Below are positions 3,497 to 21,334 of a stretch of DNA of 32,000 bases, piece by piece (position 1 is the first letter of the stretch; each line of letters opens with the position of its first letter). The DNA comes from Thermofilum pendens Hrk 5 (GTDB taxonomy: Archaea > Thermoproteota > Thermoprotei > Thermofilales > Thermofilaceae), in assembly GCF_000015225.1 (NCBI RefSeq), contig NC_008698.1, positions 960,001 to 992,000 of the forward strand, in the 5' to 3' direction. Made by a program: the position numbers and the translations under genes. A model generated the notes under the pieces. That model worked only from the letters and a program-made list of their open reading frames with translations. It did no database searches and was not told the DNA's origin.

Positions 3497-3621
3497 GCAC
3501 TATGAGAACTTCGCGGACCCTCTATTTATACGTTACGATACAGTACACCGAAAGTAAAACTCCGAGCGGAAGGGCTATACGCACGAATAGCTTTTTAACC
3601 CTAGAGGCTGTATTCCGGCAT

Positions 3622-4170: not shown

Positions 4171-4236
4171 GCACGCGGTGCCCAGAACTAATCGTAGAAC
4201 ATATGAAGGTGCGGTGCGCAGGAGAACGGGGGAGCC

Positions 4237-5271: not shown

Positions 5272-5708
5272 TAGGTACAGGGGTCTTCGCGCAACCCATC
5301 CCTGCACTTCAGCTCTTTAGCGAGCTCGCGTGCCAGCGAGTCCAGGTAGGCTGCCTCCATGGGGGCGAGTTTCAGGCGCGTAACCAGGTAGAAGATGGGG
5401 AAGAGCAGGGCTTCGCGTAACCCCCACCTGGCGAAGACGAACACGGCGAAGGGCTCCCACACGGCGAGGACGTAGCCTAAGGGAAGCCTGCAGAACGAGA
5501 CTTCTTCGTGCACGCGCTCGAGGAGCTCGCAGGGGAACGAGTATCTATCCTTACCGCACCCCCTCCTCAGCGACTCGTAGACCCGCCTAGCCTCCTCCTC
5601 GGGCATCTCGCTCAAGGTCTCGAAGCGCTCGCGCTCGAAGCAGTCGTCAAGCCACTCCCAGAAAACGGAGGACCTCAAACCGTACTCGCCGAGCAACACC
5701 CACCTCAT
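5268..5708 (-). CDS. Hypothetical protein (146 aa) with a central hydrophobic segment.
   Basis: This is the ORF-track ORF. It has its own TATA-like GTTATAAGG on the minus strand about 30 nt upstream of ATG 5708. I recognise no motifs. Confidence 0.4.
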   Translation of the reverse strand: MRWVLLGEYGLRSSVFWEWLDDCFERERFETLSEMPEEEARRVYESLRRGCGKDRYSFPCELLERVHEEVSFCRLPLGYVLAVWEPFAVFVFARWGLREALLFPIFYLVTRLKLAPMEAAYLDSLARELAKELKCRDGLREDPCTY

Positions 5709-5788
5709 GGCCCGCCACCAGTAGTACTAGGCGCCTTATAACGAGGTCGCGGGAGGAATCCGGGAGAGCGCCTCGAGGGCGCGCGAGT

Positions 5789-5820
5789 GAAAACGGAACG
5801 GGAAGAAAAACGGGTTTTTA
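5789..5820 (-). terminator. Oligo-T tracts (minus strand) immediately downstream of the 5828 stop; probable end of the RadA-paralog operon.
   Basis: The minus strand reads ...CTAAAAACCCGTTTTTCTTCCCGTTCCGTTTTCAC. T5 and T4 runs are the usual archaeal termination signal. Confidence 0.4.
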
Positions 5821-5827
5821 GGGGTGT

Positions 5828-6175
5828 TCAGCCTTCCTCCGCGATCTTGTTGAGCTCGCTCTGCACTATCGCCGGCATGACTATGGTGAACAGCCAGAAC
5901 ACGAGGAAGTAGAGCACTGCCGACTCCTTCTTCGTCACCTGCGCGAAGCCCTCGGCGTACTTGTAGAGCCAGTAAATGTTCGCTATGGGGATTATGATGA
6001 GCCAGCACGTCGGTATGCGCGCTCCGAGCGCGTTGAGCTCCCTCTTCGTCCAGACGAGCCAGAGGTAGAAGTAGACGCCGAACGTTAGAAAGATGAGCGC
6101 GTAGACCTTCAGCAGGCTCCTCTTCTCCGGCACTTTTTTCTGACCGGGGGTCGTTGCGCCCATACGGTTCAACAC
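5828..6175 (-). CDS. Small integral membrane protein, DUF4234-like.
   Basis: 115 aa with about 3 hydrophobic helices. The motif [22 protein letters not shown] resembles the GIYxxxW...EL signature I associate with DUF4234. Confidence 0.55.
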
Positions 6176-6202
6176 CTGCTCCGGGTCCGTATAAACCCAC
6201 CG

Positions 6203-6673
6203 CTACGTCGCGCGCAACGCGTCGAGGGCTAGTGCCTCCCAGTCTTTTACCTCGACCTCGCCGGAGGGCGTCTTGAGGCGTACCGACGGCTTGGTTGCAA
6301 AGTTGAGCTCTACGAGTAAGCCGTAGAGCGCCGCCTGCACCCTTTCCGCGCGCTTAACCGTGTCGTAGCTCTTCACCTCGTAGACCGCGACCGGCCTAGC
6401 TTTAACGAAGCGCACTAGGTCGGCGACACCGACGAGCCAGCCGAAGCGGAAGCGCCAAGCCAGGGGGAGCGGCGTCCACGCCTCCTCGAGCTCTAACACC
6501 CAGTCGAGGTCGCCCCAGAGCCTGCTGTGGTACTCTAAGCCGTGCTCCCTGCCGAGCCCCCTGCCGGGCGCAAGCCTAGACGAGACGCGCGTCACCGCTA
6601 CCCTAGGCTCCCCGGACACCAGCGCCCTCTCGAACCTCGCCAGGGCGCGGGACAGTAGCCTGTACTCCCTCAA
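6203..6673 (-). CDS. PD-(D/E)xK nuclease, RecB/Cas4-like, without the Cas4 Cys cluster.
   Basis: 156 aa. The TTG start is 3 nt after the RadA-paralog stop. Ordered motifs are GREHGLEYH, GVAD(85)LV, YE(99)VK(101)S and Q(113)AALY(117). Confidence 0.55.
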   Translation of the reverse strand: MREYRLLSRALARFERALVSGEPRVAVTRVSSRLAPGRGLGREHGLEYHSRLWGDLDWVLELEEAWTPLPLAWRFRFGWLVGVADLVRFVKARPVAVYEVKSYDTVKRAERVQAALYGLLVELNFATKPSVRLKTPSGEVEVKDWEALALDALRAT

Positions 6674-6676
6674 GGC

Positions 6677-7624
6677 TTAAACGTCACCCAGACCGTCGTC
6701 CCTTATCTCGAACTGCGCCGTCGCCCCCTTGGGTAGCCTCGGCGAGTCGAGAACCTCGATCAGCCACGAGTCCCCCGCCTTCTTCATGAGGAACCTGTGG
6801 GTGGAGGCGTGGGCGATTATGTTGCCGCCCGCCGGTAGCTTCACGGCTACGCCCCAGTTGCTCGGGACCGAGACTACCTGGTTCGTGATTACGACTACTA
6901 TGCTGTAGACCCTGGCGAGCCTCTTCAACCAGTCCAAGGCGTAGTTGATCCGTTGCTGCCTCATCGCGAGCCACTCGCGCCCCCTGAACTGGGCCCTGTA
7001 CAGCGCGATCACAGAGTCTATCACTACGAGCTTCACGCCGCCCTTGAGCAACGGCTTCAACCCCTTTATGACGAGCTCCTCCAGCTCGTCGACGCTGATA
7101 GGCCTCGCCACGTAGACTCCCTCCAGCGCTCCCTCCACGCCGAACCTCTCGGCGATCCTCTCTATCCTCGACGGGCTAAACGTCCCCTCGGTGTCCACGT
7201 AGACAACCTTGCCGCCGAGACCGCCCCGGCTCGGCGGTAGCTGCGCTGTGACTGACAGCTGGTGGCAGAGCTGGGTCTTCCCGGACCCGTACTCCCCGGC
7301 GAACTCGTAGATCTCCTGGGTTACGAGGCCCCCCTCTAGCAGCTCGTCCAGCGCCTTAACGCCCGTGGTGAGGGACTCCCGCTGAGAGAGTTGCGAGGCG
7401 TACTCGTCGCCCCTCACCGCCCTTACCTCCCAGCCCGCCAGCCGCCTAGCGGTCCTCACGAGCCTGAGCGCTCTCTCGAAGTCTATGCCGGCGAGCTCCT
7501 CGAGCTCCTCCGGGTTGTAGAGCACGAGGTCCTCCACGGTCTCTATGCCGGCGCTCTTCAGCCTGGAGATCGTGACCCTCCCTATGCCCTCCTCCTTCCC
7601 CAGCTCCTCAATAGGGATAGGCAT
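6677..7624 (-). CDS. Second full-length RadA-like recombinase (RadA paralog).
   Basis: The track ORF is 6677-7732. I start at ATG 7624 (MPIPIEELGKEEGIGRVTISRLKSAGIETVEDL) because this aligns with the HhH N-domain of the canonical RadA. Walker A is GEYGSGKTQ, Walker B is LVVIDSV, and the L2-like region is NQVVSVPSNWGVAVKLPAGGNIIAHA. Confidence 0.85.
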   Translation of the reverse strand: MPIPIEELGKEEGIGRVTISRLKSAGIETVEDLVLYNPEELEELAGIDFERALRLVRTARRLAGWEVRAVRGDEYASQLSQRESLTTGVKALDELLEGGLVTQEIYEFAGEYGSGKTQLCHQLSVTAQLPPSRGGLGGKVVYVDTEGTFSPSRIERIAERFGVEGALEGVYVARPISVDELEELVIKGLKPLLKGGVKLVVIDSVIALYRAQFRGREWLAMRQQRINYALDWLKRLARVYSIVVVITNQVVSVPSNWGVAVKLPAGGNIIAHASTHRFLMKKAGDSWLIEVLDSPRLPKGATAQFEIRDDGLGDV

Positions 7625-9489: not shown

Positions 9490-10059
9490 GTGAAGAGGAG
9501 AGGCTTGTCCTCTGGGACTATAGCCGCCGTCCTCATATTAATGGCCCTAGCGTTCTACGCCGGGTACCAGTACGCCCAGAGAAGCCTGCCCACGGGCGTC
9601 GCCGTAGTTTCTCAGCCCCAATGCAGCATACGCGTGATAAACGACAGGGACTACTACCCAACGCTCCTAGACTACATCTCCCGCGCAAATAAGTCCATCT
9701 ACATAGCTATGTTCCAGTTTAAGAGCGATACGGACGTAATCTCGAAGATCGTCGAGCTACTCATATCGAAGAACAAGAAGGGGGTGGACGTGAAGGTAGT
9801 CCTGGAGAACACGATAGACGAGAACGAGCTCACGTACAGGAGGCTACTGGACAACGGCGTAGCAGTAAAGTTCGACTCGAGGTCCGTCACCACGCACGCC
9901 AAGCTCGTAATCATCGACGGTAGGTACGTCTTCGTCGGTAGCCATAACTGGAGCTACATGGCGATGATGAGGAACCACGAGGCAAGCGTGCTCATCGACT
10001 GCCCTTCCATAGCCGAGCAGGAGACGCAGTATTTCATGAATATCTACAGGGGAGGATAG
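9490..10059 (+). CDS. Phospholipase D superfamily protein: single HKD domain, Nuc-like, with an N-terminal membrane anchor.
   Basis: 189 aa. The N-terminal hydrophobic helix is GTIAAVLILMALAFYAGY. A complete HKD motif is present: HAKLVIIDGRYVFVGSHN (HxKx4Dx6GSxN). Confidence 0.8.
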   Translation: MKRRGLSSGTIAAVLILMALAFYAGYQYAQRSLPTGVAVVSQPQCSIRVINDRDYYPTLLDYISRANKSIYIAMFQFKSDTDVISKIVELLISKNKKGVDVKVVLENTIDENELTYRRLLDNGVAVKFDSRSVTTHAKLVIIDGRYVFVGSHNWSYMAMMRNHEASVLIDCPSIAEQETQYFMNIYRGG

Positions 10060-10063
10060 AGAG

Positions 10064-10342
10064 ATGGATAAGGACAGGGTTGCAGGCGCAGTCCTGCTCG
10101 CCGTGGCCGCCAGCCTAGGGTCTCTCTACGCGTACCTACTGTTCCTCGCCCAGCAGGAAGTACAGGTGCTCGTCATGAAGCTCACGGCGCTCTTCGTCGT
10201 GGAGACGTTCTTCCTCGTTGTGGCGTGGGTAGGGCTCACGCTGCTGACGTCTCCACCCGAGGCGAAGGTGAGGGAGATAGAGAGGAGGCTCGAGGAGGAG
10301 TACAGGAAGCTCAGGGAGCAGGGCTACCCGTTCCCGTGGTGA
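10064..10342 (+). CDS. Small membrane protein (2 predicted TM helices) with a charged C-terminal tail.
   Basis: 92 aa with two hydrophobic stretches. Its stop overlaps the next gene's GTG (GTGA at 10339-10342). Confidence 0.5.
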   Translation: MDKDRVAGAVLLAVAASLGSLYAYLLFLAQQEVQVLVMKLTALFVVETFFLVVAWVGLTLLTSPPEAKVREIERRLEEEYRKLREQGYPFPW

Positions 10343-11733
10343 CCCCGTTGGAGAACCGCCTCGGGAAGATCCCCCTAGCCGCGCTGCGGGAGCTTCTGCT
10401 CGGCGCTGGCGCCGGGCTCGAGCTGGACGCGAACCCCCTAACGGGAGACCTGCTCGTAACGACGAACCCGGCGATAGGCGTCCCGGAGGAGTGGCTCGGC
10501 TTCTTCGCCTACCACTACTCCGCATCCAACCTGGCTGTTAGCTTTGCGCGCCCGGAGCTAGCCGTGCTCAGCGCGGTGTTCCCGGAGGGCTACCCCGGCG
10601 AGGCGGTGGAGCGCGTACTGAGGTCTTTCGTCGAGGAGTGCAGGAAGTACGGGACCAGGCTCGTGGGAGGGCACACCGCCAGGTACAGGGGGCTGGAGCT
10701 ACCCCTCCTATCCTCGACCATGGTGGGCAGAGCCGGGAGGCGTAGGGAAAAGCCGGCGGGCGGCGACAGGGTAGTCATCGTCGGCGAGGTGGGCGCCGAG
10801 GCGGCGTGGCTCGCGGGCGGAGACGTAGACCCCTCGACCCTCACCCCGCTCCCCGCCGCCCTCGCACTACAGGAAGAACCATCCATCAAGCTCATGCACG
10901 ACGTCTCCGAGGGAGGGGTCATCGGCGCCCTTCTAGAGGTAGCCCAGAGGTACGGTGTAGCGCTGGAGGTCTCGTCGAGGGACGTAAAGGTGTTCGAAGG
11001 GCTCCCGCGAGGGGTGGAGCCTCTCTCGGCGCCGAGTTACGGAGCGATAATCGCTGTTACCGGCGACGCGGAAAGCCTGCTGAGCGCATGCGAGGAGAAA
11101 GGCCTCACGTGTAGCAACGCGGGAGTAGTGGCTGGGCCCGGCAACCCCCTGGTGGTAGTCGACGGGAGAGAGTACGCGGAGCCCCCCGTGAGCCCCCTCG
11201 TGTACCTTTACGGCGCGGAGAGAAGGTCGCCCGAGGAGGCAGCCGTCGCCCTGGCCGCCGAGGAGCTCGTAAGGATCTCCAGGCTGCTAGACGTGATACC
11301 GGAGGTCGGCGCTAACATCGCCTACGCGCCTGGCCCCGTCAGGAGCCCTAGAGACGTCCTAGCGCTCGACGGCAGGATAGTCAAGACGACGGAGGGGGCT
11401 AGGCTGTGCGGGAAGCCGCGCTACGGGGCATCGAGGCACCTCGCCGAGGTCCTCGCATCCGCCAGGGAGGCCGGCATGCCTTACAGCGCCGCGGTAAACC
11501 TCAAGTACTCCGAAGACCTCCTCGAAAAACTGAAGTCCATAGGCCTCCCGGTGTGCGACGCGACGCCCTACGAGGCCTCGTGCCCAGTCTCGGAGGCAAT
11601 AAGGTCCGGGTGTAGGGCGCAGGTCTACTTCTACGCCGGTAAGCCGGGGCTCGAAGCATCGATAGTCTTACTAGCACGCGACCCCCTAGAAGCCATAGAA
11701 ATACTGAGGAAAGTCGTCGAGCAGAAACGCTAG
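10339..11733 (+). CDS. Fusion protein: PurM/AIR-synthase-superfamily (ThiL/HypE-like) domain plus a C-terminal ThiN-type thiamine-phosphate synthase domain.
   Basis: The track ORF starts at 10225 but overlaps the upstream gene. GTG 10339 (or 10336) fits translational coupling. The N-terminal half has the PurM-superfamily layout (LLVTTNPAIG..., SASNLAVSFARP, RLVGGHT). The C-terminal half matches my recollection of ThiN: IPEVGANIAYAPGPVRSPRDVLALDGRIV...YGASRHLAEVL...SAAVNLKYSEDLL. Confidence 0.65.
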   Translation: MTPLENRLGKIPLAALRELLLGAGAGLELDANPLTGDLLVTTNPAIGVPEEWLGFFAYHYSASNLAVSFARPELAVLSAVFPEGYPGEAVERVLRSFVEECRKYGTRLVGGHTARYRGLELPLLSSTMVGRAGRRREKPAGGDRVVIVGEVGAEAAWLAGGDVDPSTLTPLPAALALQEEPSIKLMHDVSEGGVIGALLEVAQRYGVALEVSSRDVKVFEGLPRGVEPLSAPSYGAIIAVTGDAESLLSACEEKGLTCSNAGVVAGPGNPLVVVDGREYAEPPVSPLVYLYGAERRSPEEAAVALAAEELVRISRLLDVIPEVGANIAYAPGPVRSPRDVLALDGRIVKTTEGARLCGKPRYGASRHLAEVLASAREAGMPYSAAVNLKYSEDLLEKLKSIGLPVCDATPYEASCPVSEAIRSGCRAQVYFYAGKPGLEASIVLLARDPLEAIEILRKVVEQKR

Positions 11734-11787
11734 CCGGGTGCTTTTCCGGAAAGCTCGGCCCTGCTTTGCTTTTTTGCTTGCATAGAG

Positions 11788-11793
11788 TTTATA
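11788..11793 (+). promoter_or_regulatory. TATA box TTTATA upstream of the candidate C/D box sRNA.
   Basis: It sits about 27 nt upstream of the predicted 5' end (C box begins at 11820), in a 190-bp intergenic region. Confidence 0.45.
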
Positions 11794-11814
11794 GGCATGT
11801 GCCCGGTGGTTGTA

Positions 11815-11880
11815 GCGAAATGATGAGGCGATTGCCCCCCGGTGAACGTGTGAGCCGGATTACCGCGTGCTGATTCTGCG
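11815..11880 (+). ncRNA. Candidate C/D box sRNA (2'-O-methylation guide).
   Basis: The C box AUGAUGA is at 11820-11826 and the D box CUGA is at 11870-11873, 43 nt apart. Internal degenerate D'-like GUGA (11842-11845) and C'-like UGUGAG (11849-11854) are present. The flanks GCGAA / UUCUGC can partly pair, and a TATA box sits upstream. The roughly 15-nt spacers are longer than the canonical 12 nt. Confidence 0.45.
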
Positions 11881-11924
11881 CGCTGGGCGAAAAGCTAAAG
11901 AACCTCGGGGAGCCACCTATACCC

Positions 11925-12647
11925 ATGGTCAAGCTACTATTCCAGGAAGACAGCTACCTGAAGGAGTTCGACGCGGTTGTCACGCGGGTCTCGGGGAACA
12001 AGGTTTTTCTCGACCAGACGGCGTTCCACCCTGGTCCCTCCGGGGGCCTCGACACGGACAAGGGGTGGCTCGTGCTGCCGACGGGCGACAGGGTCGAGGT
12101 TGTCCAGGCCTTGGAGGAGGGGGGCGACGTCGCCCACGTGCTAGCCCGCGCGGTGAACCTGAAGCCGGGGGACAGGGTGCGCGGAGTCATAGACTGGGAG
12201 AGGAGGTACAGGATGATGAAGCTCCACACGGCGTCTCACGTGCTTGCAGCCGTGCTGTACAAGAAGTACGGCGCGCTCGTAACAGGTGGACACATACAGC
12301 CCGAGGAGGCGAAGGACGACTTCGACCTCTCCGGCGTCGAGGACTGGAAGGCAGCCTTTCAGCAGGCAGTCGAGGAGACAAACAGAATCATCGGTGGCTG
12401 CCTAGAGGTAAAGGTGTACTGGCTGAGCAGGGATGAGGCCCTGAAGATCCCAGGCATAGTGAAGCTCGCCGGCAGGTTGCCCCCAGAGGTGGAGAAGCTC
12501 CGCATAGTGGAGATACCCGGCGTCGACGTACAGGCAGACGGCGGACCGCACGTGAAGAATACCTGCGAGATAGGCGGGATAGTCCTGAAGAAGCTCGAGA
12601 GCAAGGGGGCGAAGAGGAAGAGGATCTACTACTCGCTCAAGGAGTAG
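11925..12647 (+). CDS. alaX: Alanyl-tRNA editing protein AlaX-M type (misacylated tRNA-Ala deacylase).
   Basis: 240 aa. The N-terminal barrel is DSYLKEFDAVVTRVSGNKVFLDQTAFHPGPSGGLDTDKG. The HxxxH motif is MKLHTASHVL. The second zinc motif reads DGGPHV, where I expect CGGTHV. Confidence 0.85.
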   Translation: MVKLLFQEDSYLKEFDAVVTRVSGNKVFLDQTAFHPGPSGGLDTDKGWLVLPTGDRVEVVQALEEGGDVAHVLARAVNLKPGDRVRGVIDWERRYRMMKLHTASHVLAAVLYKKYGALVTGGHIQPEEAKDDFDLSGVEDWKAAFQQAVEETNRIIGGCLEVKVYWLSRDEALKIPGIVKLAGRLPPEVEKLRIVEIPGVDVQADGGPHVKNTCEIGGIVLKKLESKGAKRKRIYYSLKE

Positions 12648-13340
12648 GTGCTCGCGCGGAGATGTCGCGCTATGCGCGGGCGGGGGATCCTGGAGCTTTT
12701 CAGCGAGGTAGCCGGGCAGTACGACTCCTGGTACGACTCGCCCGCGGGGAGAGTAGTCCTCGAAGTCGAAGCATCCATGCTCGACGAGGTGCTACCGAGC
12801 GGTATAGGCGTTGACGTCGGCGCCGGTACATGCCGCTTCGCGCCCTTTCTCTCCAGGGGGAGGGAGATAGTGTGCCTGGAGCCTGCTTACGGAATGCTCG
12901 TCTACGGATACGCTAGGGGGAGGTGCGAGCACCCCCTCTGCGCGACCTCGGAGAACGCCCCGCTAAGACCCTCCTTCGACTTCGCGTACATGGTCACTGT
13001 GCTCGAATTCCTGGAGGACCCGGCTCTCTCCCTGACGCGCATATGGGAGGCCTTGAAGAGCGGGGGCTTGCTGGCGGTTCTCTACGTTGAGCGCGACAGC
13101 AAGTGGGGGAAGCTGTACTCGGAGCTCGCAGAGAAGGGCGCAGACCCCGTGCTAGCGAGAGCTAGGTTCTACAGCCAGCCCGAAGTCGACAAGCTACTCT
13201 CGGCGGCGGGCTTCGAGGTAAGGGAGCACCTCAAGTCGCTCGACTACGAGCCCCTCACGGTCCCCGCGGAGAAGCCCAGGGTCTACAGGGAGAGTTGCGC
13301 CGACTGCGGCGTAACTTTGACCGTAGCCGTGAAAAAGTAA
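12648..13340 (+). CDS. Class I SAM-dependent methyltransferase.
   Basis: It has the SAM motif I GVDVGAGTCRF and an acidic post-I loop, in a Methyltransf_11-like layout (FDFAYMVTVLEFLEDP...LKSGGLL). The start is either GTG 12648, directly after the alaX stop, or ATG 12672. Confidence 0.75.
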   Translation: MLARRCRAMRGRGILELFSEVAGQYDSWYDSPAGRVVLEVEASMLDEVLPSGIGVDVGAGTCRFAPFLSRGREIVCLEPAYGMLVYGYARGRCEHPLCATSENAPLRPSFDFAYMVTVLEFLEDPALSLTRIWEALKSGGLLAVLYVERDSKWGKLYSELAEKGADPVLARARFYSQPEVDKLLSAAGFEVREHLKSLDYEPLTVPAEKPRVYRESCADCGVTLTVAVKK

Positions 13341-13411
13341 TAACCGCGAAGGACGCGCCTCAAAGGGTTGACCTCCTCAACCTTTATTAGCGTGGAGTTT
13401 TCTTCGAAGTT

Positions 13412-14626
13412 GTGGGCGAAGCTTCGAAAGTCCTCGTCGCCGCTACCACGCGGGACGGCCGCCTGGTCTACTTGTCTGCAGTTGCTAAGCCTCAACAGCC
13501 GGGGCTAGACGAGGCTCTCGCGAGCCTCCTGAAAAGCTTGGCGTACCACAGCTACGAGGAGCTCCAGGGAGACAGGGTCCTGCTGGAGGCGAAGAAGGCT
13601 TTATCGTCGCAGGGCTTCAAGGTGGAGGACCTCGAGCTCTCTGTTTCCTTCAGATGCCCCTCCTGCGGAGCCTCCATAAACTTCTCGCCTGAAACCGTCG
13701 TCTACGTGTGCCCCTACTGCGGGTGGAGCGGCGACGTGTACGGGAGGGAGCTACGCGTGAAGGCTTGGCCCCCGGGAGGCAGGGAGAAGCTGGAGGAGAT
13801 AGTCAGGGGTCTGGGGGGAGTCCTACACGACGCGGTTCTGCGCTACGTGCCCTTCTGGGTCTTCAAGGTGAAGGTAGAGGGCTCGTACGCGGGGACAGCG
13901 ACGTACACTGTTACCAGGACGGAGTACGTCACGGTGATCCATGAGGGCAGGCCCCGGCAGATCCCGACGACCAGGACGGAGGTTAGGAGGAAGAAGGTTG
14001 CGGGCCGCGTGAGCTTCTCTACGGTCAAGGGCGTGGGGGCGCGGGTACTCGCCGAGGTGTTCGGAGGGGAAGGCCTGAAGAGGTGGGTGGAGTACGAGTG
14101 GGAGAACAACCCTCCCCCGGAGCTGAGCGCCGAGCAGGTTAAGCCCGTGGCGCAGAGCTTCCTCTCGGCCGAGGTGGACGCGGGGGAGGCGCTCGGCATT
14201 GCTAGGAGGGAGATAGACTCCGAAATATACGCAGAGATAGAGAGATCGGCGCGGAGGCAGGTGGAAGGCTCCCTGAAGGAAGTTGCGGTCGAGTCCCTCT
14301 CGGTGGACCTCAAGGTAGTCGAGAAGAGCCTCGTCTTCGTCCCGTACTGGTTCTTCACGTACAAAGTGGAGGGAAACCTCTACGCGGGGGCCGTGGCGGG
14401 ACCGAAAGCCACCCTCCTGAAGGCCGAGCGTCGCATCTCGAACATCGAGAGGGCCGCGAGGCTCGCCGGAGCGTGGATAGCCGTGCTGGCCTCGGGCGCG
14501 CTGGCGCAGGTCTCGGTGGGTAGCGACCTCGGCTTCCCGGGCGTCCTAATGGCGTGGGCTATAGGGTTGGTAGGAGCCTACAAGCTCGCCGAGTCGGCGT
14601 TCGCCCCGGCGGAGGTGGTAGCGTGA
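13412..14626 (+). CDS. Zinc-ribbon protein with C-terminal transmembrane helices (YdjG-like architecture).
   Basis: 404 aa. The zinc ribbon is CPSCGASINFSPETVVYVCPYCG. A conserved YVPFWVF motif is present, and there are two C-terminal hydrophobic helices (AGAWIAVLASGALAQV, VLMAWAIGLVGAYKLA). CTTTATTA lies about 25 nt upstream of GTG 13412. Confidence 0.6.
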   Translation: MGEASKVLVAATTRDGRLVYLSAVAKPQQPGLDEALASLLKSLAYHSYEELQGDRVLLEAKKALSSQGFKVEDLELSVSFRCPSCGASINFSPETVVYVCPYCGWSGDVYGRELRVKAWPPGGREKLEEIVRGLGGVLHDAVLRYVPFWVFKVKVEGSYAGTATYTVTRTEYVTVIHEGRPRQIPTTRTEVRRKKVAGRVSFSTVKGVGARVLAEVFGGEGLKRWVEYEWENNPPPELSAEQVKPVAQSFLSAEVDAGEALGIARREIDSEIYAEIERSARRQVEGSLKEVAVESLSVDLKVVEKSLVFVPYWFFTYKVEGNLYAGAVAGPKATLLKAERRISNIERAARLAGAWIAVLASGALAQVSVGSDLGFPGVLMAWAIGLVGAYKLAESAFAPAEVVA

Positions 14627-15501
14627 CTCTGTGCCCCTACTGCGGTGCGAACGTCGAGAGGAACCCCGGGGAGGTCGTGCTCACGTGCCCCTACTGCGGG
14701 ACAGCCTTCACCGTCGAGGGCGGGGAGGTCGGAGAGCACCTGATGGGCAGGATTAACTACAGCGTGCAACAGGTATTCGAGAACTTCAAGTCGTGGGCAC
14801 TCAGGATGCCGGAAACACCGAACGACTTCCTGGAGAAAGCCCTCTTCAAGAGCTACGAGGTACGCTTCTACCCGTTCTGGGTGTTCGTGTTCCAAGCAAG
14901 GGTGAGCTACGCGGGCGGCTACGAGGACTTAACGCTACCAGTCCACGTACCGGGCCACACCTCGATGCTGGGCACCCCACTCGAGAAGCTACGCCCCACC
15001 CTGGGCGGAAAGGTATTCTACAGCCACAGGTACGTGGTAAACGCTGGCGCAAAGCTCGTCAACCCCGACGTGGGCCCGGAGGACGCCGAGAAGAAAGCCG
15101 TAGAGCAGGCTGGAGAAATGGCCCTCGAATCCCTCTCCATAAGGTTCGGCGGGAGGGCCAGGCTTAGGGTAGAGTCCCTCGCCGTGTCGGAGAGGAAGCT
15201 CGTCCACCACCCAGTTATCCACGCAACGTACACCTACTCCGGAAGGGAGTACAAATTCATGGCAGACGCCTCGGACTCCAGGATACTCTACGCCGAGATA
15301 CCGGTAGAGGCGAAGTTCAGAGCCGCGGCTGCCGCTGGCGGCCTCGCCTCGCTGGGACTCGCCCTGGCATCCCTCCTCGCCGCGAGAGACGCACCCATGT
15401 TCGCCGCCACATCACTACTAGGCTTCCTGGTCGTAGCCGGAGTCTCGCTCAGCAAAGCCTTCGCTCCCACAGCCGTCGTCACAAAATCCTTCGCTAGTTA
15501 G
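14623..15501 (+). CDS. Paralogous zinc-ribbon protein with C-terminal transmembrane helices.
   Basis: I start at GTG 14623, which overlaps the upstream stop (GTGA). The N-terminal zinc ribbon is CPYCGANVERNPGEVVLTCPYCG. It shares the FYPFWVF motif and overall layout with the upstream gene, and has two C-terminal hydrophobic helices. Confidence 0.6.
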   Translation: MTLCPYCGANVERNPGEVVLTCPYCGTAFTVEGGEVGEHLMGRINYSVQQVFENFKSWALRMPETPNDFLEKALFKSYEVRFYPFWVFVFQARVSYAGGYEDLTLPVHVPGHTSMLGTPLEKLRPTLGGKVFYSHRYVVNAGAKLVNPDVGPEDAEKKAVEQAGEMALESLSIRFGGRARLRVESLAVSERKLVHHPVIHATYTYSGREYKFMADASDSRILYAEIPVEAKFRAAAAAGGLASLGLALASLLAARDAPMFAATSLLGFLVVAGVSLSKAFAPTAVVTKSFAS

Positions 15502-15510
15502 AGGCTAACA

Positions 15511-15517
15511 TATATTA
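15511..15517 (+). promoter_or_regulatory. TATA box TATATTA for the 171-aa helical protein gene.
   Basis: It lies 24-30 nt upstream of GTG 15541, in a 39-bp intergenic gap. Confidence 0.4.
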
Positions 15518-15540
15518 GCCAGAACGGTGGAACTCATACC

Positions 15541-16056
15541 GTGTCCGACGTCTATAGAAGCGTTTCTAGCAGGCTCCGCCTACTGGAAAAGCTGGAGCTA
15601 GTGATACCGGGCTACAGGGGCTACAAGGAGAAGGAGCTCAGGCGCGAGGCGGACCGCCTGATCAGGAGCTACCTGCTCTCCAAGCTGGAGCCGGCGTACA
15701 GGGACTTCAAGGGCGCCATGAAGGTAGTCGCGGCGACGGGAGACCCCTCGCTGGCGGCTACGTACAACGAGGTCCAGGCGGTGTTCGACAGGGTGGTGTC
15801 GAAGCTGAAGACGATGAGCTACGGGTATACGGGGTTCTTCGACGCTGTGAAGATAGAGGAAAAGGAGCTAGACAAGATGCTGGAGCTCGACTGGAGCCTC
15901 GCCTCCTCCGTCGACAAAGTCGTGGAGAAGGCTAGGGCAGTCGCCGCCGCTGAGCCCTCCAAGGTTTCAGCGGCGCTGAACGACCTTAGAGGCGAGCTAC
16001 TAGCCTTCGAGGACTTGATAGTTAAGAGGGAGAACGCGATTAAGGGTATAGGGTGA
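15541..16056 (+). CDS. All-helical/coiled-coil protein of unknown family (171 aa).
   Basis: There are no TM segments and no Cys motifs. It is heptad-like and charged, e.g. GYRGYKEKELRREADRLIRSYLLSKLE and EEKELDKMLELDWSLASSVDKVVEKARAV. Its stop overlaps the start of the SPFH gene (GTGA at 16053-16056). Confidence 0.55.
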   Translation: MSDVYRSVSSRLRLLEKLELVIPGYRGYKEKELRREADRLIRSYLLSKLEPAYRDFKGAMKVVAATGDPSLAATYNEVQAVFDRVVSKLKTMSYGYTGFFDAVKIEEKELDKMLELDWSLASSVDKVVEKARAVAAAEPSKVSAALNDLRGELLAFEDLIVKRENAIKGIG

Positions 16057-17039
16057 GAGCGATGCCTCAAGTAATCGAGTGGGTCAACCCAGGGCCCGAC
16101 GACATAGTCTGGCGCTACCCCGACGAGAACATAACGTGGGGCGCGCAGCTCATAGTCCACGAGTACGAGGTCGCCGTCTTCTTCCGGGACGGCAAGGCGT
16201 ACGACGTGCTTGGACCCGGGAGGCACACGCTGACAACGCAGAACCTACCCCTGCTGACGAGGGTGCTGTCCGCCATCGCCGGCTACCCGACAACCCCGTT
16301 CAAGGCTACCGTCATATTCGTCTCAACGAAGCAGTTCAGAGGCTTGTTCGGTGGCAGGAGCCAGACGACGGAGCTAGCCCCACTCATGTTCAGGGGTTCC
16401 TACTGGTTCAGGGTCGGAGACCCCAAGCTCTTCGTAACCGAGGTCGTCGGAGGCCAAGGGAAGTATACCAGCGCCGAGGTAAACGAGTTCATAAGGGGCT
16501 TCATAAACGAGAAGGTAATAAAGCACCTCTCCGGGTACTCCTTGGCGGAGGCGTTCTCGAGCCTCGAGCAGGTATCCTTCAAGACGAAGGCCTTCCTCCT
16601 GGAGGAGGTGAGGAGGATAGGCCTCGAGCTCATAGACCTTAAGTTCGAAGCCATAGACACGACCCCCGAGTACAGGGACAGGCTCTTCTGGATAAAGCAG
16701 ACCGGCGCGGCTGGCTACGTGCTACAAATGGACACAGCGAAGGAAGTCGCCAGGGAGCTTGGCAAATCCCCAGGCGCAGCCGTAGGAGCAGGGGTAGTTA
16801 TGATACCCCCACTCTTCCAGCCCCCACCACAGCAACCCCTGCCCCAGCAACCTCCCGCCGCCCAGCCGCCGGCCACCAAGACCTGCCCACAGTGCGGGCG
16901 CCCGGTACCCTTAGACGCCCTGTTCTGCCCGTACTGTGGCTACCGATTCCAGCCCGCCACGAAGAAGTGCCCCAACTGCGGTAGAGAGGTACCGGCAGAC
17001 GCCCTCTACTGTCCGTACTGCGGTACGAAGCTCGCCTAG
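16053..17039 (+). CDS. SPFH/Band-7-like protein (COG4260, virion-core-protein-like type) with a P/Q-rich linker and a C-terminal double zinc ribbon.
   Basis: The N-terminus VIEWVNPGPDDIVWRYPDENITWGAQLIVHEYEVAVFFRDGKAYDVLGPGRHTLTTQNLPLL matches my recollection of the YdjI/Band_7_1 family. The C-terminus has CPQCGRPVPLDALFCPYCG and CPNCGREVPADALYCPYCG. Confidence 0.8.
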   Translation: MRAMPQVIEWVNPGPDDIVWRYPDENITWGAQLIVHEYEVAVFFRDGKAYDVLGPGRHTLTTQNLPLLTRVLSAIAGYPTTPFKATVIFVSTKQFRGLFGGRSQTTELAPLMFRGSYWFRVGDPKLFVTEVVGGQGKYTSAEVNEFIRGFINEKVIKHLSGYSLAEAFSSLEQVSFKTKAFLLEEVRRIGLELIDLKFEAIDTTPEYRDRLFWIKQTGAAGYVLQMDTAKEVARELGKSPGAAVGAGVVMIPPLFQPPPQQPLPQQPPAAQPPATKTCPQCGRPVPLDALFCPYCGYRFQPATKKCPNCGREVPADALYCPYCGTKLA

Positions 17040-18031
17040 CCCCTCGCGACAGCCTTCAACCCGAGTCTCGCGAAGAACGCGGGGTACCTCAGCGAGAACC
17101 CGAGAAGTTCCCTTGGCTCGACGTTCCCAGCTGTCACTCTCTCGAGGAGCTCCAGGGGCGCCGAGGAAAAGACCCTCACCCTCTCCTCCGGCGTCGATTT
17201 CTCCAGAAGGCTCAGTATCCTCAGCTGTAACTCCACGTTGAGAGCTAGCCCGCTAGTCTTCAGGTGCTCTTCGAGAGGCTTGCCCTTTGCTATGCTCTCG
17301 TAGACCGCTCTCGCGGAGATTAGCCCGGGGCGTATACCCTCGCCCGTCAAAGGCATCACGGCGCCCAGCGCCTCTCCCACGGCTAGCCTGCCTTTACCGG
17401 GCTTTAAGCCCCCGCTGGCTATCGGGGAACCGGATACCCGTACAACTTCGCCTCTGACTGTTCTAAGGAGCTCCGCGAGCCTCCTCTCGAGGAACTCCTT
17501 CCCAGCCAGCCCCCCTACCCCCACGTGCGCGGCGCGGTCCCCGGCCGGGAAGACCCAGCCGTACCCAACGAGGTCCGAGTAGAAGTACACCCATATCTCC
17601 TCGCGCGGAGGCTCCACCCTGACGGTAGCCTGGAGCGCTAGAGCTTTTCTCCCCGGGTACGCCGCGTGCCCCCTCGCGTCTACCACGAGGCTGTACTCCG
17701 AGAGCCTGCCGGGAGAAACGCCCACGTGCACCACGTCTACGCCTTCCAGCAGGTACCGTATGAACGCCTCCTTATCGACTATGTCTCCCAGCCTCCTACC
17801 GCTGTACTCGTGCAGGAGCCTCCCGTCGACGAAGATCCTGTACCCCCGCACGGTCTCGAGGACGGCGTCCCCGGGGATCCTGAGGACATCGTCGACCGAG
17901 TACGGGACTCCCCAGCCGCAGGGCTTCACGGCGAACTTCCTGTTAGCCTCGAAGACGGTTACGTCGTAGCCTTCCTCCGAGAGGAGCCTCGCGAGGTACG
18001 CCCCGGAGGGTCCAGCCCCGACTACGGCTAT
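17036..18031 (-). CDS. Geranylgeranyl reductase family FAD-dependent oxidoreductase; start codon unresolved.
   Basis: The track ORF 17036-17929 starts at a GTG, but the Rossmann motif RIAVVGAGPSGAYLARLLSEEGYDVTVFE is encoded in frame upstream, at 17930-18034. There is no ATG/GTG/TTG between it and the in-frame TGA at 18059-18061. The end coordinate 18031 is the only near-cognate candidate (ATA). KPCGWGVP resembles the conserved Cys region of this family. Confidence 0.7.
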   Translation of the reverse strand: MAVVGAGPSGAYLARLLSEEGYDVTVFEANRKFAVKPCGWGVPYSVDDVLRIPGDAVLETVRGYRIFVDGRLLHEYSGRRLGDIVDKEAFIRYLLEGVDVVHVGVSPGRLSEYSLVVDARGHAAYPGRKALALQATVRVEPPREEIWVYFYSDLVGYGWVFPAGDRAAHVGVGGLAGKEFLERRLAELLRTVRGEVVRVSGSPIASGGLKPGKGRLAVGEALGAVMPLTGEGIRPGLISARAVYESIAKGKPLEEHLKTSGLALNVELQLRILSLLEKSTPEERVRVFSSAPLELLERVTAGNVEPRELLGFSLRYPAFFARLGLKAVARG

Positions 18032-18058
18032 CCTGCCCCCCGTAGCCCCTCCCTTTTT

Positions 18059-18316
18059 TCACAGTTTCTTTATCTCTTCCTCGATTTCCTCTATTGATAG
18101 CTTGCTGAACTGTAGTATTACTTGTACTTTGTCTGGCTCTAGGAGCGTTATTATGGCGTCTTTGTACACGCCTTTAACCAGAGGCCCGTACCTAGCCGTA
18201 ACCTTCCCAGCCCTCTCAAGCCACTCGGCAACTCTACCCAAACACCCCTCCTCGACAGCGAGCAAGTATGTCTTACTAGAAGCGCAAACAAGGCTCCTAG
18301 ACTTAACCAGGCACAT
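18059..18316 (-). CDS. Hypothetical small protein (85 aa).
   Basis: This is the ORF-track ORF, and the overlapping antisense ORF looks spurious. It ends in a Glu/Lys-rich tail, SIEEIEEEIKKL. Its TGA stop is in the same frame as the downstream reductase. I recognise no family. Confidence 0.4.
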   Translation of the reverse strand: MCLVKSRSLVCASSKTYLLAVEEGCLGRVAEWLERAGKVTARYGPLVKGVYKDAIITLLEPDKVQVILQFSKLSIEEIEEEIKKL

Positions 18317-18403
18317 TGCGAGCCCACCGGGTTAACTATGCCTGGCTATAATAAATGCTTTATATAATGCGCGTTTTTAAGCTTCGGGCGCTTGAGGGGG
18401 GCG

Positions 18404-19756
18404 ATGAGCGTAAACCCTGTCGACGCGGCTGTAGGTGCCTCTATACTGCTCGTACCTTCGCTCGTTCTCGGCGTCCTGAAGAAGGACGTAGTTACGGCTT
18501 CCCTGGCTACGTTCGCTACCGTCGTCGCCGCGGCCCTACTGCAGTCCAAGGCCGGCGCCGTCTTCAGGGCTGCCCCAGTCGGCGCGTGGACGGGTGTCCA
18601 GATCTCGTTGCTAATAGTAGCCGCTATCTACTTCTACAAGGCGTACGAGTCCCTGGGCTACGTCGGGAGGCTCAGGGAAAGCCTGACCTCCGGGAAAGGC
18701 GTAGAGGTCTTCCTGGCAGTCTACTTCTCGGGATTCATCGAGAGCATGTCCGGCTACGGCGTCTCCCCCGCCGTGACGGCACCAATCCTGGCGGGGCTGG
18801 GCGTGGGAGCCGTGGAGGCAACGCTTCTGCCGATGTTCGGGCACGTGTGGGCAGTCCCCTTCGCCAGCCTCGGCGTCCCAACGCTCGTACTCTCGCAAGT
18901 CACGGGGGCTGACGCGGAGAGCTTAGCGGCGTTCACCGCGAGAATCCTCTTCGCCCCCCTCGTCTTGATCCTGGCGCTAGCCCTGCTGGTAGGTAGGGCT
19001 AGGCGGCGAGCGGCGCTCGTGGCGCTCGCGTCCTCCGCCCTCCTACCGCTGTTCGCCGTAGCAGGCACCATGGTCGCAGCCTTAACCGGGTTCGCTGGCC
19101 TAGTTCTAGGCCTCCTGGCTACCCAGGGCCTAGCCGCTACCCGTAGAACGCTTAGGCTGGTAAGCCCGTACGTTATGCTAGTCGCCTCGGTGATAGCTCT
19201 AGGCGCGCTGGGCGCCAGGGGCCTGCTCTGGGTGGCGCTCACCACGGTTGCGGTGTCCCTCGCCGTACAGCTCGCGCACAGAAGGTTCTCCCGGGAAGCG
19301 GCGGTATCGGCGTTATCCATGACGAAGAGGTCGGTGGTCGCCGTTATCCTCTTCTCGGCCGTGGCGGAAGTCTCGAAGCAGGCTGGCTACACGGTGGCGC
19401 TAGCCGAAGTAGTGGCGGTGACCGCTGGGAAGGCTTACCTCCCCCTCGTCCCCGTGGTCGCCGTTCTCGGAGCGTTCATAACTGGTAGCGCGACTAACAG
19501 CAACCTGCTCCTAGGCCTCTTGCAGAAGACTTTCGGCGAGCTAGCCGGGGTAGACCAGTCTCTGGTTCTCGCGCTCCAGAACGCGGGAGCGGGTCTGGGA
19601 AGCGGGATAGCGCCGGCGAAGATATCCGTAGCCGCCTCGACGACCGGTGGTAAACGCGTCGAAGCGGAGGTCTTCCGGCGCGTCGTCCCGGTGATCGCGT
19701 TGCTAGTAGCGCCCCTATCGATCCTAGCGGTGCTCGCGTGCATGGCTAAGGCTTGA
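18404..19756 (+). CDS. L-lactate permease (LctP) family transporter.
   Basis: The segment IVAAIYFYKAYESLGYVGRLRESL...GFIESMSGYGVSPAVTAPILAGLGVGAVEATLLPMFGHVWAVPFASLGVPTLVLSQVTG is collinear with the E. coli LldP region [24 protein letters not shown]...[24 protein letters not shown]...[22 protein letters not shown], which I recall from memory. ATG 18404 is preferred over TTG 18392 because TTTTTAA lies 30 nt upstream. Confidence 0.75.
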   Translation: MSVNPVDAAVGASILLVPSLVLGVLKKDVVTASLATFATVVAAALLQSKAGAVFRAAPVGAWTGVQISLLIVAAIYFYKAYESLGYVGRLRESLTSGKGVEVFLAVYFSGFIESMSGYGVSPAVTAPILAGLGVGAVEATLLPMFGHVWAVPFASLGVPTLVLSQVTGADAESLAAFTARILFAPLVLILALALLVGRARRRAALVALASSALLPLFAVAGTMVAALTGFAGLVLGLLATQGLAATRRTLRLVSPYVMLVASVIALGALGARGLLWVALTTVAVSLAVQLAHRRFSREAAVSALSMTKRSVVAVILFSAVAEVSKQAGYTVALAEVVAVTAGKAYLPLVPVVAVLGAFITGSATNSNLLLGLLQKTFGELAGVDQSLVLALQNAGAGLGSGIAPAKISVAASTTGGKRVEAEVFRRVVPVIALLVAPLSILAVLACMAKA

Positions 19757-19816
19757 ACCCCCGCTTCTCGCGCGAATGCTTAATAGGGCTCTCGGCGCAT
19801 CTAGACCGAGGTGTAC

Positions 19817-20455
19817 ATGAAGGCTTCGCGCCTGCTCGCCGCGCTTGCCGCGTTGCTGGCCGTGGTACTGGTAGTCGCAGTGCTTCAGACCGGGGAGAGC
19901 CCGGAGAAGGTTATCGTCGACGCTAGGAACAGGTTGCTCGGCTCTAAGGGCTGGGTCTTCGAGGAACGCGTGAACTTCACGAAGGGCTGGGTCAGGGTGC
20001 TCGTAAGCGGCACCGTGGATCTAGGGTCCCACACCTTAAACACCACGGTGGTTGTTTTAAGGGGGTCTCAGCCGTCCCTAAGCGTCATCTACTCGAACAG
20101 GAGCGTCACTCTGGTAAACCTGGGGGGAGGGTGGGCGAGGGCTGGGGAGGGGTGGAGGGTTAACGACACGGTCATTTACCGCCTCCTGGAGCTCGCGCGG
20201 GCCTCTCCGGAGAAGCACTTGAAGCCGTCAGCGAAGGGGTTTACGGTGTTCTTCGGGGGTGGGTGCACGGACACGTGCACGGGGCTCTACCAGTACTTGT
20301 TAAGGCTCGCTGGGCTGGAGGGCTCCAACCCCACCAGCTATAAAGGTGTTCTCACAGTGGAGGAGGGGTACCCCCGCGCAGTCTACGTGGAGTTCTACGA
20401 GGGAGGCGAGGCTACGTGTAGCCTCCTATACTCCCTGAGACCCCTAAATGTGTAA
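19817..20455 (+). CDS. Exported or membrane-anchored hypothetical protein.
   Basis: The N-terminal signal/anchor is MKASRLLAALAALLAVVLVVAVL. Several N-x-S/T sequons are present (NFT, NTT, NRS, NDT). I recognise no family. Confidence 0.5.
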   Translation: MKASRLLAALAALLAVVLVVAVLQTGESPEKVIVDARNRLLGSKGWVFEERVNFTKGWVRVLVSGTVDLGSHTLNTTVVVLRGSQPSLSVIYSNRSVTLVNLGGGWARAGEGWRVNDTVIYRLLELARASPEKHLKPSAKGFTVFFGGGCTDTCTGLYQYLLRLAGLEGSNPTSYKGVLTVEEGYPRAVYVEFYEGGEATCSLLYSLRPLNV

Positions 20456-20485
20456 AAATATAAGGGTGCGTGCCTCGATTAAGCG

Positions 20486-21334
20486 ATGGCGCCTTCCGCG
20501 AAAGATCTGCTGGAGCTCTTCAAGGTGAAGCAGACCGCGTTGCTACTAGTCACGGGGGTATGCGCTTACCTCGAAGGCGCGGGGAAACCAGACCCGGCTA
20601 CGCTTGTCTTAGCGTCTCTCTCCATGTTCCTGTCCATAGCTGGAACCACGGGCTTCAACATGGTCCTAGACGCCGACATAGACTCCGCGATGTTTAGAAC
20701 CAGGAACAGACCTCTACCCGCGAGGAGGATGAGCGCGAAGGACGCTGTCCTCGCCAGCTCAGCGGCCCTAGCCGCGGGCCTCGCCGCTGGGGTAGCGGTC
20801 AACCCCTACGTTTTCGTAGCGGGGCTCCTGGGCTTCCTGATAGACATAGCGGTGTACACCGTCCTGCTCAAGAGGAAGAGCCCTTGGAGCGTTGTCTTCG
20901 GGGGCTTCGCGGGCGGCATGCCGGCGCTGGGCGGCTGGGCGGCGGCCACGGGGGGATTCGGCTACCAGGGGGTGCTGCTCATGCTCCTCGTAGCGGTCTG
21001 GAGCTCCCTGCACATATGGACGCTGAGCACGTACTACTCCGAGGACTACAGGAGGGCTGGCGTCCCGATGCTACCCGCAGTCTACGGGGAGAGGGCGGGT
21101 GTTGTTGCTTCTCTTGCCGCGGCTGTCGCCGTGTTCCTAGTGGCATTCCTGGCGTTCAGGGCCGGCTTGATCTCTGCGGTGGGCTTCGCGGTGGCGGCAG
21201 TCCCCCTGGTACTGGCGGTGGCGGTGCTTCTGAAGGGTCTTGTCAGCGGGGAGTACAGGGAGAAAGCGTACAGGGCTTTCAAGCTTGTAAACATCTTCAT
21301 GGGGCTATTCTTCGTCTTGCTGGTGCTTACCTAG
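20486..21334 (+). CDS. ctaB: Protoheme IX farnesyltransferase (heme O synthase), UbiA family.
   Basis: 282 aa and polytopic. The motif is NMVLDADIDSAMFRTRNRPLPARRMS, with a second Asp-rich region around YYSEDYRRAGVPMLP. Confidence 0.85.
   Translation: MAPSAKDLLELFKVKQTALLLVTGVCAYLEGAGKPDPATLVLASLSMFLSIAGTTGFNMVLDADIDSAMFRTRNRPLPARRMSAKDAVLASSAALAAGLAAGVAVNPYVFVAGLLGFLIDIAVYTVLLKRKSPWSVVFGGFAGGMPALGGWAAATGGFGYQGVLLMLLVAVWSSLHIWTLSTYYSEDYRRAGVPMLPAVYGERAGVVASLAAAVAVFLVAFLAFRAGLISAVGFAVAAVPLVLAVAVLLKGLVSGEYREKAYRAFKLVNIFMGLFFVLLVLT

Follow-up and report, generated by a model that had tools for sequence, protein, structure and literature searches.

A stretch of 32,000 nt from the genome of Thermofilum pendens Hrk 5, a member of the Thermoproteota (contig NC_008698.1, positions 960,001 to 992,000; here called the window), holds a module of four open reading frames (ORFs), g1 to g4, whose relation to the pspA-ydjGHI (samGHI) locus of Bacillus subtilis is considered here. 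The first two encode paralogous membrane proteins with a zinc ribbon (ZnR), the third a small helical protein, and the fourth a soluble protein with an SPFH domain (Table 1). A first-pass annotation, made from the sequence alone, had described four plus-strand genes with two GTGA start/stop overlaps, and both the layout and the overlaps (14623-14626 between g1 and g2, 16053-16056 between g3 and the g4 ORF) are found in the sequence. The second overlap had also been read as the start of g4, and here the annotation needs amending. Indeed, 63 of about 80 g4 homologs (47 + 16) begin with MPQ(V/I)IEW, and thus g4 most likely starts at the ATG at 16062 (MPQVIEW...) and not at the overlapping GTG at 16053. 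As this ATG is 5 nt past the g3 stop, the coupling of g3 and g4 is tight with either start. The start of g2 is backed by the N-termini of its homologs (MTxCPYCG).

Table 1. Genes and promoter-like elements of the four-gene module (positions counted from the first base of the window).
Feature	Position	Strand	Description
TATA-like TTTATTA	13383-13389	+	centred ~26 nt 5' of the g1 GTG; sequence read and A/T-rich 8-mer scan
g1	13412-14626	+	404 aa, GTG start; ORF list
g2	14623-15501	+	292 aa from GTG; GTG overlaps the g1 stop
TATA-like A/T-rich element TAACATATATTAG	15506-15518	+	~27 nt 5' of the g3 GTG, inside the 39-nt g2-g3 gap
g3	15541-16056	+	171 aa, GTG start
g4	16062-17039	+	probable start ATG 16062; ORF opens at GTG 16053 (328 aa)

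The product of g4 matches the Pfam family Band_7_1 over residues 19-207 (E 5.6e-29, 101.7 bits, cut-off 24), the domain being placed at residues 19-233, and also matches Band_7, and two C-terminal CxxC..CxxC zinc ribbons (DZR, 3.6e-17) follow a P/Q-rich linker. It has no transmembrane (TM) segment, the maximum Kyte-Doolittle score of a 19-residue stretch being 1.1. BLASTP aligns residues 4-299 of g4 with residues 8-322 of B. subtilis YdjI at E 6e-15 and 20% identity, and YdjI itself scores 146.9 bits on the Band_7_1 model. These matches, which bear out the COG4260/YdjI-type assignment, the linker and the two ribbons proposed in the first pass, identify g4 at the level of sequence as a soluble SPFH protein of the YdjI/SamI type within Band_7_1, belonging to a distant subfamily and not representing an ortholog-level match. 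No relatives of g4 were found among PDB sequences. The Bacillus pspA-ydjGHI locus was represented by a metagenome contig (L085) retrieved with a published ydjG primer sequence (PMC8581546), and its content by Pfam consists of PspA_IM30, a ZnR protein, TPM_phosphatase, and Band_7_1 with a ZnR. Recruitment of PspA to the membrane and localisation dependent on YdjG and YdjH are known for YdjI in B. subtilis only (PMC8581546). An antisense ORF of ~100 aa (~16700-16880, minus strand) can be read across from the P/Q linker and ribbons of g4 and is also present in 71 related loci; it is almost certainly no gene and arises from a sense strand rich in GC and in proline codons.

The products of g1 and g2 are paralogs (BLASTP 7e-11). 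Both contain a CxxC...CxxC ribbon and have TM segments at the C-terminus, and they are the only TM-bearing proteins of the module. In g1, an N-terminal extension of ~75 aa precedes the CxxC..CxxC zinc ribbon at residues 82-104, two repeats whose beta hairpins bear the motif PFWVF / PYWFF, and hydrophobic segments at the C-terminus that include at least one TM segment (residues 351-369). Its matches to zinc-ribbon profiles are weak, and g1 orthologs of the same length are present at two other Thermofilaceae loci, L005 and L006 (3e-115). The AlphaFold2 (AF2) model of g2 (mean predicted local distance difference test score, pLDDT, 90.6) has an N-terminal zinc ribbon, two repeats, in each of which a helix is packed on long beta hairpins carrying a P(F/Y)W motif, and a C-terminal TM hairpin (residues 230-253 and 258-280). 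The similarity of g2 to B. subtilis YdjG (BLASTP 5e-7) spans the ribbon and the first repeat, while a TM-less bathyarchaeal ortholog of g1/g2 aligns with YdjG over its full length (4e-11, residues 2-247 vs 48-312); with YdjG as phmmer query, matches were obtained in 56 surveyed loci (best 1.7e-14). YdjG has been described as composed of ZnRs, a YpeB-related domain and a TM segment (PMC11237479), and weak PepSY matches in two archaeal members of the g1/g2 family (0.003, 0.037) are consistent with this published architecture. Collectively, these alignments argue that g1 and g2 are true homologs of YdjG/SamG, as their layout had suggested. In a fold search of the PDB the g2 model gave no significant match, the YpeB C-domain appearing only at rank 41. 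DUF4178 was considered as the core domain of g1/g2 and rejected, given that the phmmer match of a Ralstonia DUF4178 protein was limited to the zinc ribbons and that hhalign gave 0.12%.

The third gene, g3, encodes a protein without a TM segment that had been read as all-helical, in agreement with its AF2 model (pLDDT 87.8, predicted TM score, pTM, 0.83), in which two short N-terminal helices are followed by a compact bundle of helices 31-66, 69-91, 107-135 and 142-168. Two loops are invariant in the family, PGYRGYKEKELRRE (residues 23-36) and SYGYTGFFD (residues 93-101), with P23-G24-x-x-G27-Y28 and Y94-G95-Y96-x-G98-F99-F100 as their invariant residues, along with the charged residues E32, R35, D38, R42, D83, D117 and R163. 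The up-down topology of the model suggests that these residues lie together at one bundle end. The protein matches no Pfam family. Its sole database match, to the NCBIfam model NF047596 (LIMLP_15305 family; 42.2 bits, E 7.7e-11, residues 35-165), is far from the equivalog cut-off of 210 bits, which makes g3 a relative at superfamily level that stands outside the Leptospira equivalog. When 1.84 billion cluster representatives (50%-identity clusters) were searched with a family profile, 1,887 relatives were returned, 1,088 of them at E<=1e-10. Several members are fused to other elements: N-terminal zinc ribbons, an N-terminal TM helix (P0144), acidic tails, a C-terminal DUF4178 or a long P/G-rich tail. 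A further apparent fusion with a response-regulator receiver (P0318, 309 aa) has an arginine-rich linker that looks out of frame and was set aside as a probable frameshift or assembly artefact. Relatives of solved structure were sought by sequence and profile, with results at noise level only (TorS sensor 0.021, iron-binding protein 0.079), and nothing significant was found among viral structures. A LemA-like identity, an idea arising from the DUF2207 and TPM contexts usual for LemA, was dismissed for want of a Pfam LemA match and of LemA among the fold matches. The literature retrieved on the g3 family, COG4260, Band_7_1, and SPFH with archaeal zinc ribbons comprises the Bacillus work and comparative genomics on the response named PSP (phage shock protein), with no g3-like partner described. 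PspAB, the PspA-associated domain B of Ravi et al., differs from the g3 family in its published context (metallopeptidase, PspAA).

Conservation of the gene neighbourhood had been named beforehand as a test of the module, and it was found to be pronounced. The survey covered 84 loci, namely the best 80 of at least 574 (one genome per species), three earlier loci and the window; it was anchored on g3 with alignment A1, and the 80 genome loci are biased towards Thermoproteota and relatives of T. pendens, being mostly from Thermofilaceae, Bathyarchaeia, Brockarchaeota and Nitrososphaeria, with a few bacteria. In this g3-anchored set, the g3 homolog is followed directly by a g4 homolog in 81 of 84 loci, with a spacing of -1 to +5 nt in 75 of the 82 pairs, an adjacency far beyond chance. 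The same order, g3 followed by Band_7_1, was met in 11 of 12 contig look-ups that included clearly bacterial contexts (two with pspA in between are counted here); the twelfth (P0158) is a contig of ~1 kb without a downstream gene. Collectively, these data indicate that translation of g3 is coupled to that of g4 and that the two genes are inherited together in Archaea and Bacteria alike. Band_7_1 genes without g3 also exist, for example on plasmids and in Bacillus, and thus g3 marks a subfamily of SPFH loci. YdjG-like genes occur in 57 of the 84 loci in three arrangements: a TM-bearing pair upstream of the g3-g4 dyad in Thermofilaceae, a single TM-less copy upstream in Bathyarchaeia, and a TM-bearing pair downstream in loci of the Brockarchaeota type. 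The bacterial loci examined have the dyad without YdjG-like genes. With B. subtilis PspA or YdjH as phmmer queries, nothing was found in the 83 related loci (+/-6 kb). The core of the system would be the g3-g4 dyad, with YdjG-like anchors as a lineage-specific addition in Thermoproteota.

Other membrane proteins recur around the dyad. In 52 loci, mostly bathyarchaeal, a protein of ~112 aa with four TM segments and a KYER..FST loop motif is encoded 3' of the SPFH gene (for instance L001 7533-7871; L018 7506-7859; L002 5500-5889, minus strand). Thermofilaceae, the window included, lack this protein and have TM hairpins in g1 and g2 themselves, and the membrane anchor may be provided in trans in one lineage (4-TM protein with TM-less YdjG-like protein) and in cis in the other. 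A different 4-TM protein of 114 aa is found in Brockarchaeota-type loci (L012 7973-9650), where it is encoded with an archaeal-ATPase-like gene of 424 aa between the SPFH gene and the YdjG-like pair and overlaps the start of the first YdjG-like gene. In three bacterial loci, DUF2207 membrane proteins with glycine-rich tails are encoded 5' of g3 (L092 2050-4440, L096 939-3410, L093 178-4341), the DUF2207-context loci L092 and L096 being 47% identical to each other. In these two a protein of ~172 aa also precedes g3; the only copy read, that of L096, has two TM segments and a C-terminal CPxCG...CPYCG ribbon that resembles the YdjG ribbon. A similar 2TM+ZnR protein is divergently encoded in an archaeal locus (L002 5082-5429, minus strand).

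These contexts bear on whether the dyad works at the membrane at all. Neither g3 nor g4 has a TM segment, zinc ribbons are spread across the components and stand at the N-terminus of some g3 homologs, and the ZnR type of YdjG is known from DNA-binding proteins according to Popp et al. (bioRxiv 10.1101/2021.02.15.431232), all of which would suit a cytosolic g3-g4 complex that uses its ribbons to bind nucleic acid or some other soluble target and has a regulatory or chaperone function apart from membrane integrity. However, the SPFH proteins characterised to date act at membranes, the dyad repeatedly adjoins membrane proteins (YdjG-like, 4-TM in 52 loci, DUF2207, small 2TM+ZnR), and the g3 homolog P0144 has a TM helix of its own, which makes a purely cytosolic function quite unlikely.

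The question of PspA requires separate treatment, as the first-pass annotation had noted the absence of pspA from the locus and had put the 171-aa protein in its place. The absence holds, since PspA_IM30 was not found among the four module proteins and the eight flanking genes (9490-21334). The placement had to be given up: g3 corresponds in position to ydjH of Bacillus, directly 5' of the SPFH gene, and not to pspA, and neither the profile searches nor the structure comparison proposed for it gave a PspA or ESCRT-III signal. In particular, g3 has no match at E<=1 to PspA_IM30, Snf7 or TPM_phosphatase, and of the 134 Pfam families that 39 members of the g3 family match, the 25 most frequent do not include PspA_IM30, Snf7 or TPM. 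Alignment of the g3 profile by hhalign gave a probability of 0.17% with B. subtilis PspA and 0.08% with YdjH. A Foldseek search of the PDB gave no match at E<=1e-3; generic helical bundles lead, with IncA as the best (TM score 0.49), CdvB2 reaches only E 0.34 and a TM score of 0.28, and the top 50 contain no PspA/Vipp1 entry. Membership of g3 in the PspA/ESCRT-III group is thus rejected on the Pfam, hhalign and Foldseek results, and an ESCRT-III fold on the model, a compact bundle of helices of 23-36 residues with no long alpha1-alpha2 hairpin. A relation to YdjH/TPM was likewise rejected on account of the missing TPM match, the hhalign value and the lack of a TM segment.

Two metagenomic loci, apparently bacterial, have pspA between g3 and Band_7_1 and are the first to connect the g3 family with PspA directly at the genomic level. 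In L091 (702-4039) the order is g3 with a DUF4178 extension, PspA_IM30, and Band_7_1 with DZR; in L093 (5001-8134) it is g3 with a long P/G-rich tail, PspA_IM30, and Band_7_1 with SHOCT. The pspA products match Bacillus PspA by phmmer at 8e-22 and 3e-18, and the g3 domains match the family profile at E 2e-34 and 1.5e-32, respectively. Being co-encoded with a genuine pspA, the g3 family accompanies PspA and is not its replacement. DUF4178 is itself found in PspA-linked and Band-7-linked polyamine operons (PMC11237479), and the pspA triads together with the DUF4178 fusion place the g3 family in the PSP/SPFH contextual network, where it is PspA's partner. These data also weigh on the idea that g3 is a divergent PspA/ESCRT-III substitute, a polymerising protein recruited by the SPFH protein that remodels or seals the membrane in an archaeon without Cdv or PspA. 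This idea draws on the all-helical nature of g3 and on its setting, which has YdjG-like and YdjI-like genes but no pspA; Thermoproteales-type crenarchaea reportedly lack the Cdv/ESCRT-III division system, which counts in its favour as well. The failed profile, hhalign and fold matches, the compact bundle in place of the long ESCRT-III hairpin, and the occurrence of the family next to genuine pspA in two loci, which speaks for partnership and not substitution, nonetheless leave it very unlikely.

Whether g1-g2 and g3-g4 form one system depends in part on the gap between them. The first pass had assigned to the 39-bp gap a TATA box of its own. The gap and the A/T-rich element are there, and ACATATATTA, around 15508-15517, is the longest and most A/T-rich stretch of the module (scan 13200-17300), but its status as a promoter is only suggestive. 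By its position, the element in the gap would be a candidate internal promoter for g3-g4, and TTTATTA ahead of g1 a candidate promoter of a leaderless g1-g2 transcript; both are compatible with archaeal TATA boxes of leaderless mRNAs. However, an A/T-rich 8-mer of this kind turns up about every 360 nt in the window, and thus both elements are suggestive at most. The internal element would fit a view in which the ZnR membrane pair and the SPFH dyad are two unrelated units, adjacent in Thermofilaceae by chance, as would the lack of YdjG-like genes in 27 of the 84 loci and in the bacterial dyad loci, the varying position of these genes, and the other genes that intervene before g4 in Brockarchaeota-type loci. 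On the other hand, YdjG-like genes accompany the dyad in the majority of loci in three independent arrangements (pair upstream, single copy upstream, pair downstream), and in Bacillus ydjG and ydjI share one operon in which ydjG, like ydjH, is needed for the membrane localisation of YdjI in vivo (PMC8581546). Two-hybrid data from Bacillus report interactions of YdjI with YdjH and PspA and of YdjG with YdjH (PMC8581546). A chance juxtaposition of two unrelated units is therefore unlikely.

The module is flanked by genes for ThiN/AIRS, an AlaX-like editing protein, a methyltransferase, a lactate permease and UbiA, and GC content is even across the region. These housekeeping flanks and the even GC content indicate that the module is a discrete chromosomal unit and not an island. 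Upstream, a 502-aa fusion (10225-11733) joins AIR-synthase-related domains of the ThiL-like family to a ThiN thiamine-phosphate synthase domain and is apparently bifunctional in thiamine biosynthesis. Downstream, a convergent 297-aa ORF on the minus strand (17036-17929) ends 4 nt within the stop region of g4 (17036-17039); it has no Pfam match at 1e-4 and resembles a truncated or divergent protein of the geranylgeranyl-reductase type (GxGxxG-less, with an FAD-reductase-like C-terminal part). An anti-virus defence system or a part of a mobile element might be suspected from the SPFH and zinc-ribbon proteins known in some conflict systems and from a small Butyrivibrio plasmid on which a g4-like gene has restriction-modification and toxin-antitoxin genes nearby. 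Such an origin is scarcely credible here: PADLOC has no family-level match for the four proteins, with weak matches at the level of the Zn ribbon only, PHROGs matches are ribbon-level only, the flanks are thiamine, tRNA-editing, methyltransferase, permease and UbiA genes at uniform GC, the bathyarchaeal locus is in stable synteny with lysS and an FAD oxidoreductase gene, and none of 72,556 plasmids was found to carry g3.

We regard it as probable that the locus is a cytoplasmic-face SPFH scaffold module, a relative of B. subtilis pspA-ydjGHI (samGHI) that has neither PspA nor YdjH. YdjG and YdjH are membrane proteins that in B. subtilis recruit the soluble YdjI, which in turn recruits PspA (PMC8581546). 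The zinc ribbon and the two alpha/beta repeats of g1/g2 are predicted to be cytoplasmic, with the C-terminal TM hairpin holding both proteins at the membrane, and by homology the pair would dock a g4 oligomer at its cytoplasmic face. A 2026 preprint (bioRxiv 10.64898/2026.02.06.704340) reports that SamI is a higher-order oligomer restraining SamGH signalling, a phenotype for which PspA is dispensable, which renders a PspA-free version plausible; the T. pendens module would function without PspA, at least locally. The synteny, the conservation pattern and the fusions suggest that g3 binds g4 as a stoichiometric partner through its conserved bundle end, which would bear the two aromatic/glycine loops and the invariant charged residues listed above, and has an adaptor or regulatory function in the assembly or output of the SPFH protein. 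Where a lineage has pspA between g3 and g4, g3 is probably the connection from scaffold to PspA. The module would most likely serve to sense membrane integrity and to maintain it under stress, and the label of a novel membrane-remodelling system given earlier to the locus is speculation.

Several points tell against this interpretation. Function is assigned from homology, structure models and gene context or synteny, and the role of g3 in particular is inferred from synteny, conserved residues and fusions. The identity of ~20% to YdjI implies that g4 is of a different subfamily, and the TPM protein YdjH, the proposed direct anchor of YdjI and PspA in Bacillus, is missing. Since the dyad occurs without a YdjG-like gene in most bacteria surveyed, docking by g1/g2 cannot be a general mechanism, and g1-g2 and g3-g4 may be separate transcription units in view of the TATA-like element in the gap. 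The absence of PspA is defined at the level of the locus, and PspA or ESCRT-III elsewhere in the T. pendens genome is possible. A wider proposal, that the g3 family is a hitherto unrecognised, ancient and near-universal partner of its Band_7_1 subfamily and the missing adaptor from SPFH proteins to PspA/ESCRT-III effectors, and that where PspA is lacking g3-SPFH with YdjG-like anchors forms a self-sufficient membrane-integrity system in Archaea and Bacteria, is conceivable but doubtful.

The locus bears on how SPFH scaffolds connect to membrane-repair machinery. To our knowledge, YdjGHI/SamGHI of Bacillus is the only case of the Band_7_1 class studied so far, and the YdjG and YdjI core is seen here in Thermoproteota without PspA or YdjH. 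What is new is a large g3 family without a Pfam model that pairs near-obligately with one SPFH subfamily in both domains of life. This makes it a concrete candidate for an SPFH adaptor or regulator, and it would merit a Pfam entry as a new domain family.

Compared with the B. subtilis pspA-ydjGHI (pspA-samGHI) operon, the likeness extends to the individual proteins: YdjI/SamI, like g4, belongs to the Band_7_1 SPFH proteins, lacks a TM segment and has a low-complexity linker as well as zinc-ribbon sequence at the C-terminus, and YdjG/SamG, like g1/g2, combines ZnR, a YpeB/PepSY-like region and a C-terminal TM segment. In both loci the genes are closely packed on the same strand. The T. pendens module differs in having neither pspA nor the TPM-domain gene ydjH, in two YdjG paralogs instead of one, in the number of ribbons (one each in g1/g2 vs two in YdjG; two in g4 vs one in YdjI), and in the TM hairpin of g1/g2 (modelled as such in g2) vs the single TM segment of YdjG. 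Moreover, g3, directly 5' of the SPFH gene in T. pendens, was not found in the Bacillus locus by hidden Markov model search.

The g3-pspA-Band_7_1 operons of L091 and L093 share both the g3 family and the Band_7_1 SPFH family with T. pendens, and differ in the intervening pspA, the C-terminal extensions of g3, the absence of YdjG-like genes and, in L093, the upstream DUF2207. The Band-7/DUF4178/DUF350/polyamine operons, variants in which PspA is replaced (Ravi et al., PMC11237479), place a Band_7_1-type SPFH protein in a PSP-like membrane context, as here. In the Ralstonia example (L090) no g3 domain is detectable and the partners are instead DUF350, a ZnR-DUF4178 protein and SpeD; on this R. 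solanacearum megaplasmid (3530-7122) the Band_7_1-like gene lies between DUF350 and ZnR-DUF4178-ZnR-DUF4178, followed by speD. The zinc ribbons of its DUF4178 protein resemble that of g1 (E 1e-6), while the core domains do not match. A link of ESCRT with SPFH-CC-ZnR proteins has been noted in some methanogens (Makarova et al., PMC10936438).

In HflK/C-FtsH, stomatin/QmcA-NfeD and FloT-YuaF, an SPFH scaffold gene is tightly coupled to the gene of a dedicated partner. As far as Pfam matches show, g3, a soluble helical bundle, has no similarity to NfeD, FtsH or YqiJ/YuaF, and g4 differs in having no membrane anchor of its own; the logic of a scaffold encoded with its partner is shared by g3-g4 and all three pairs.

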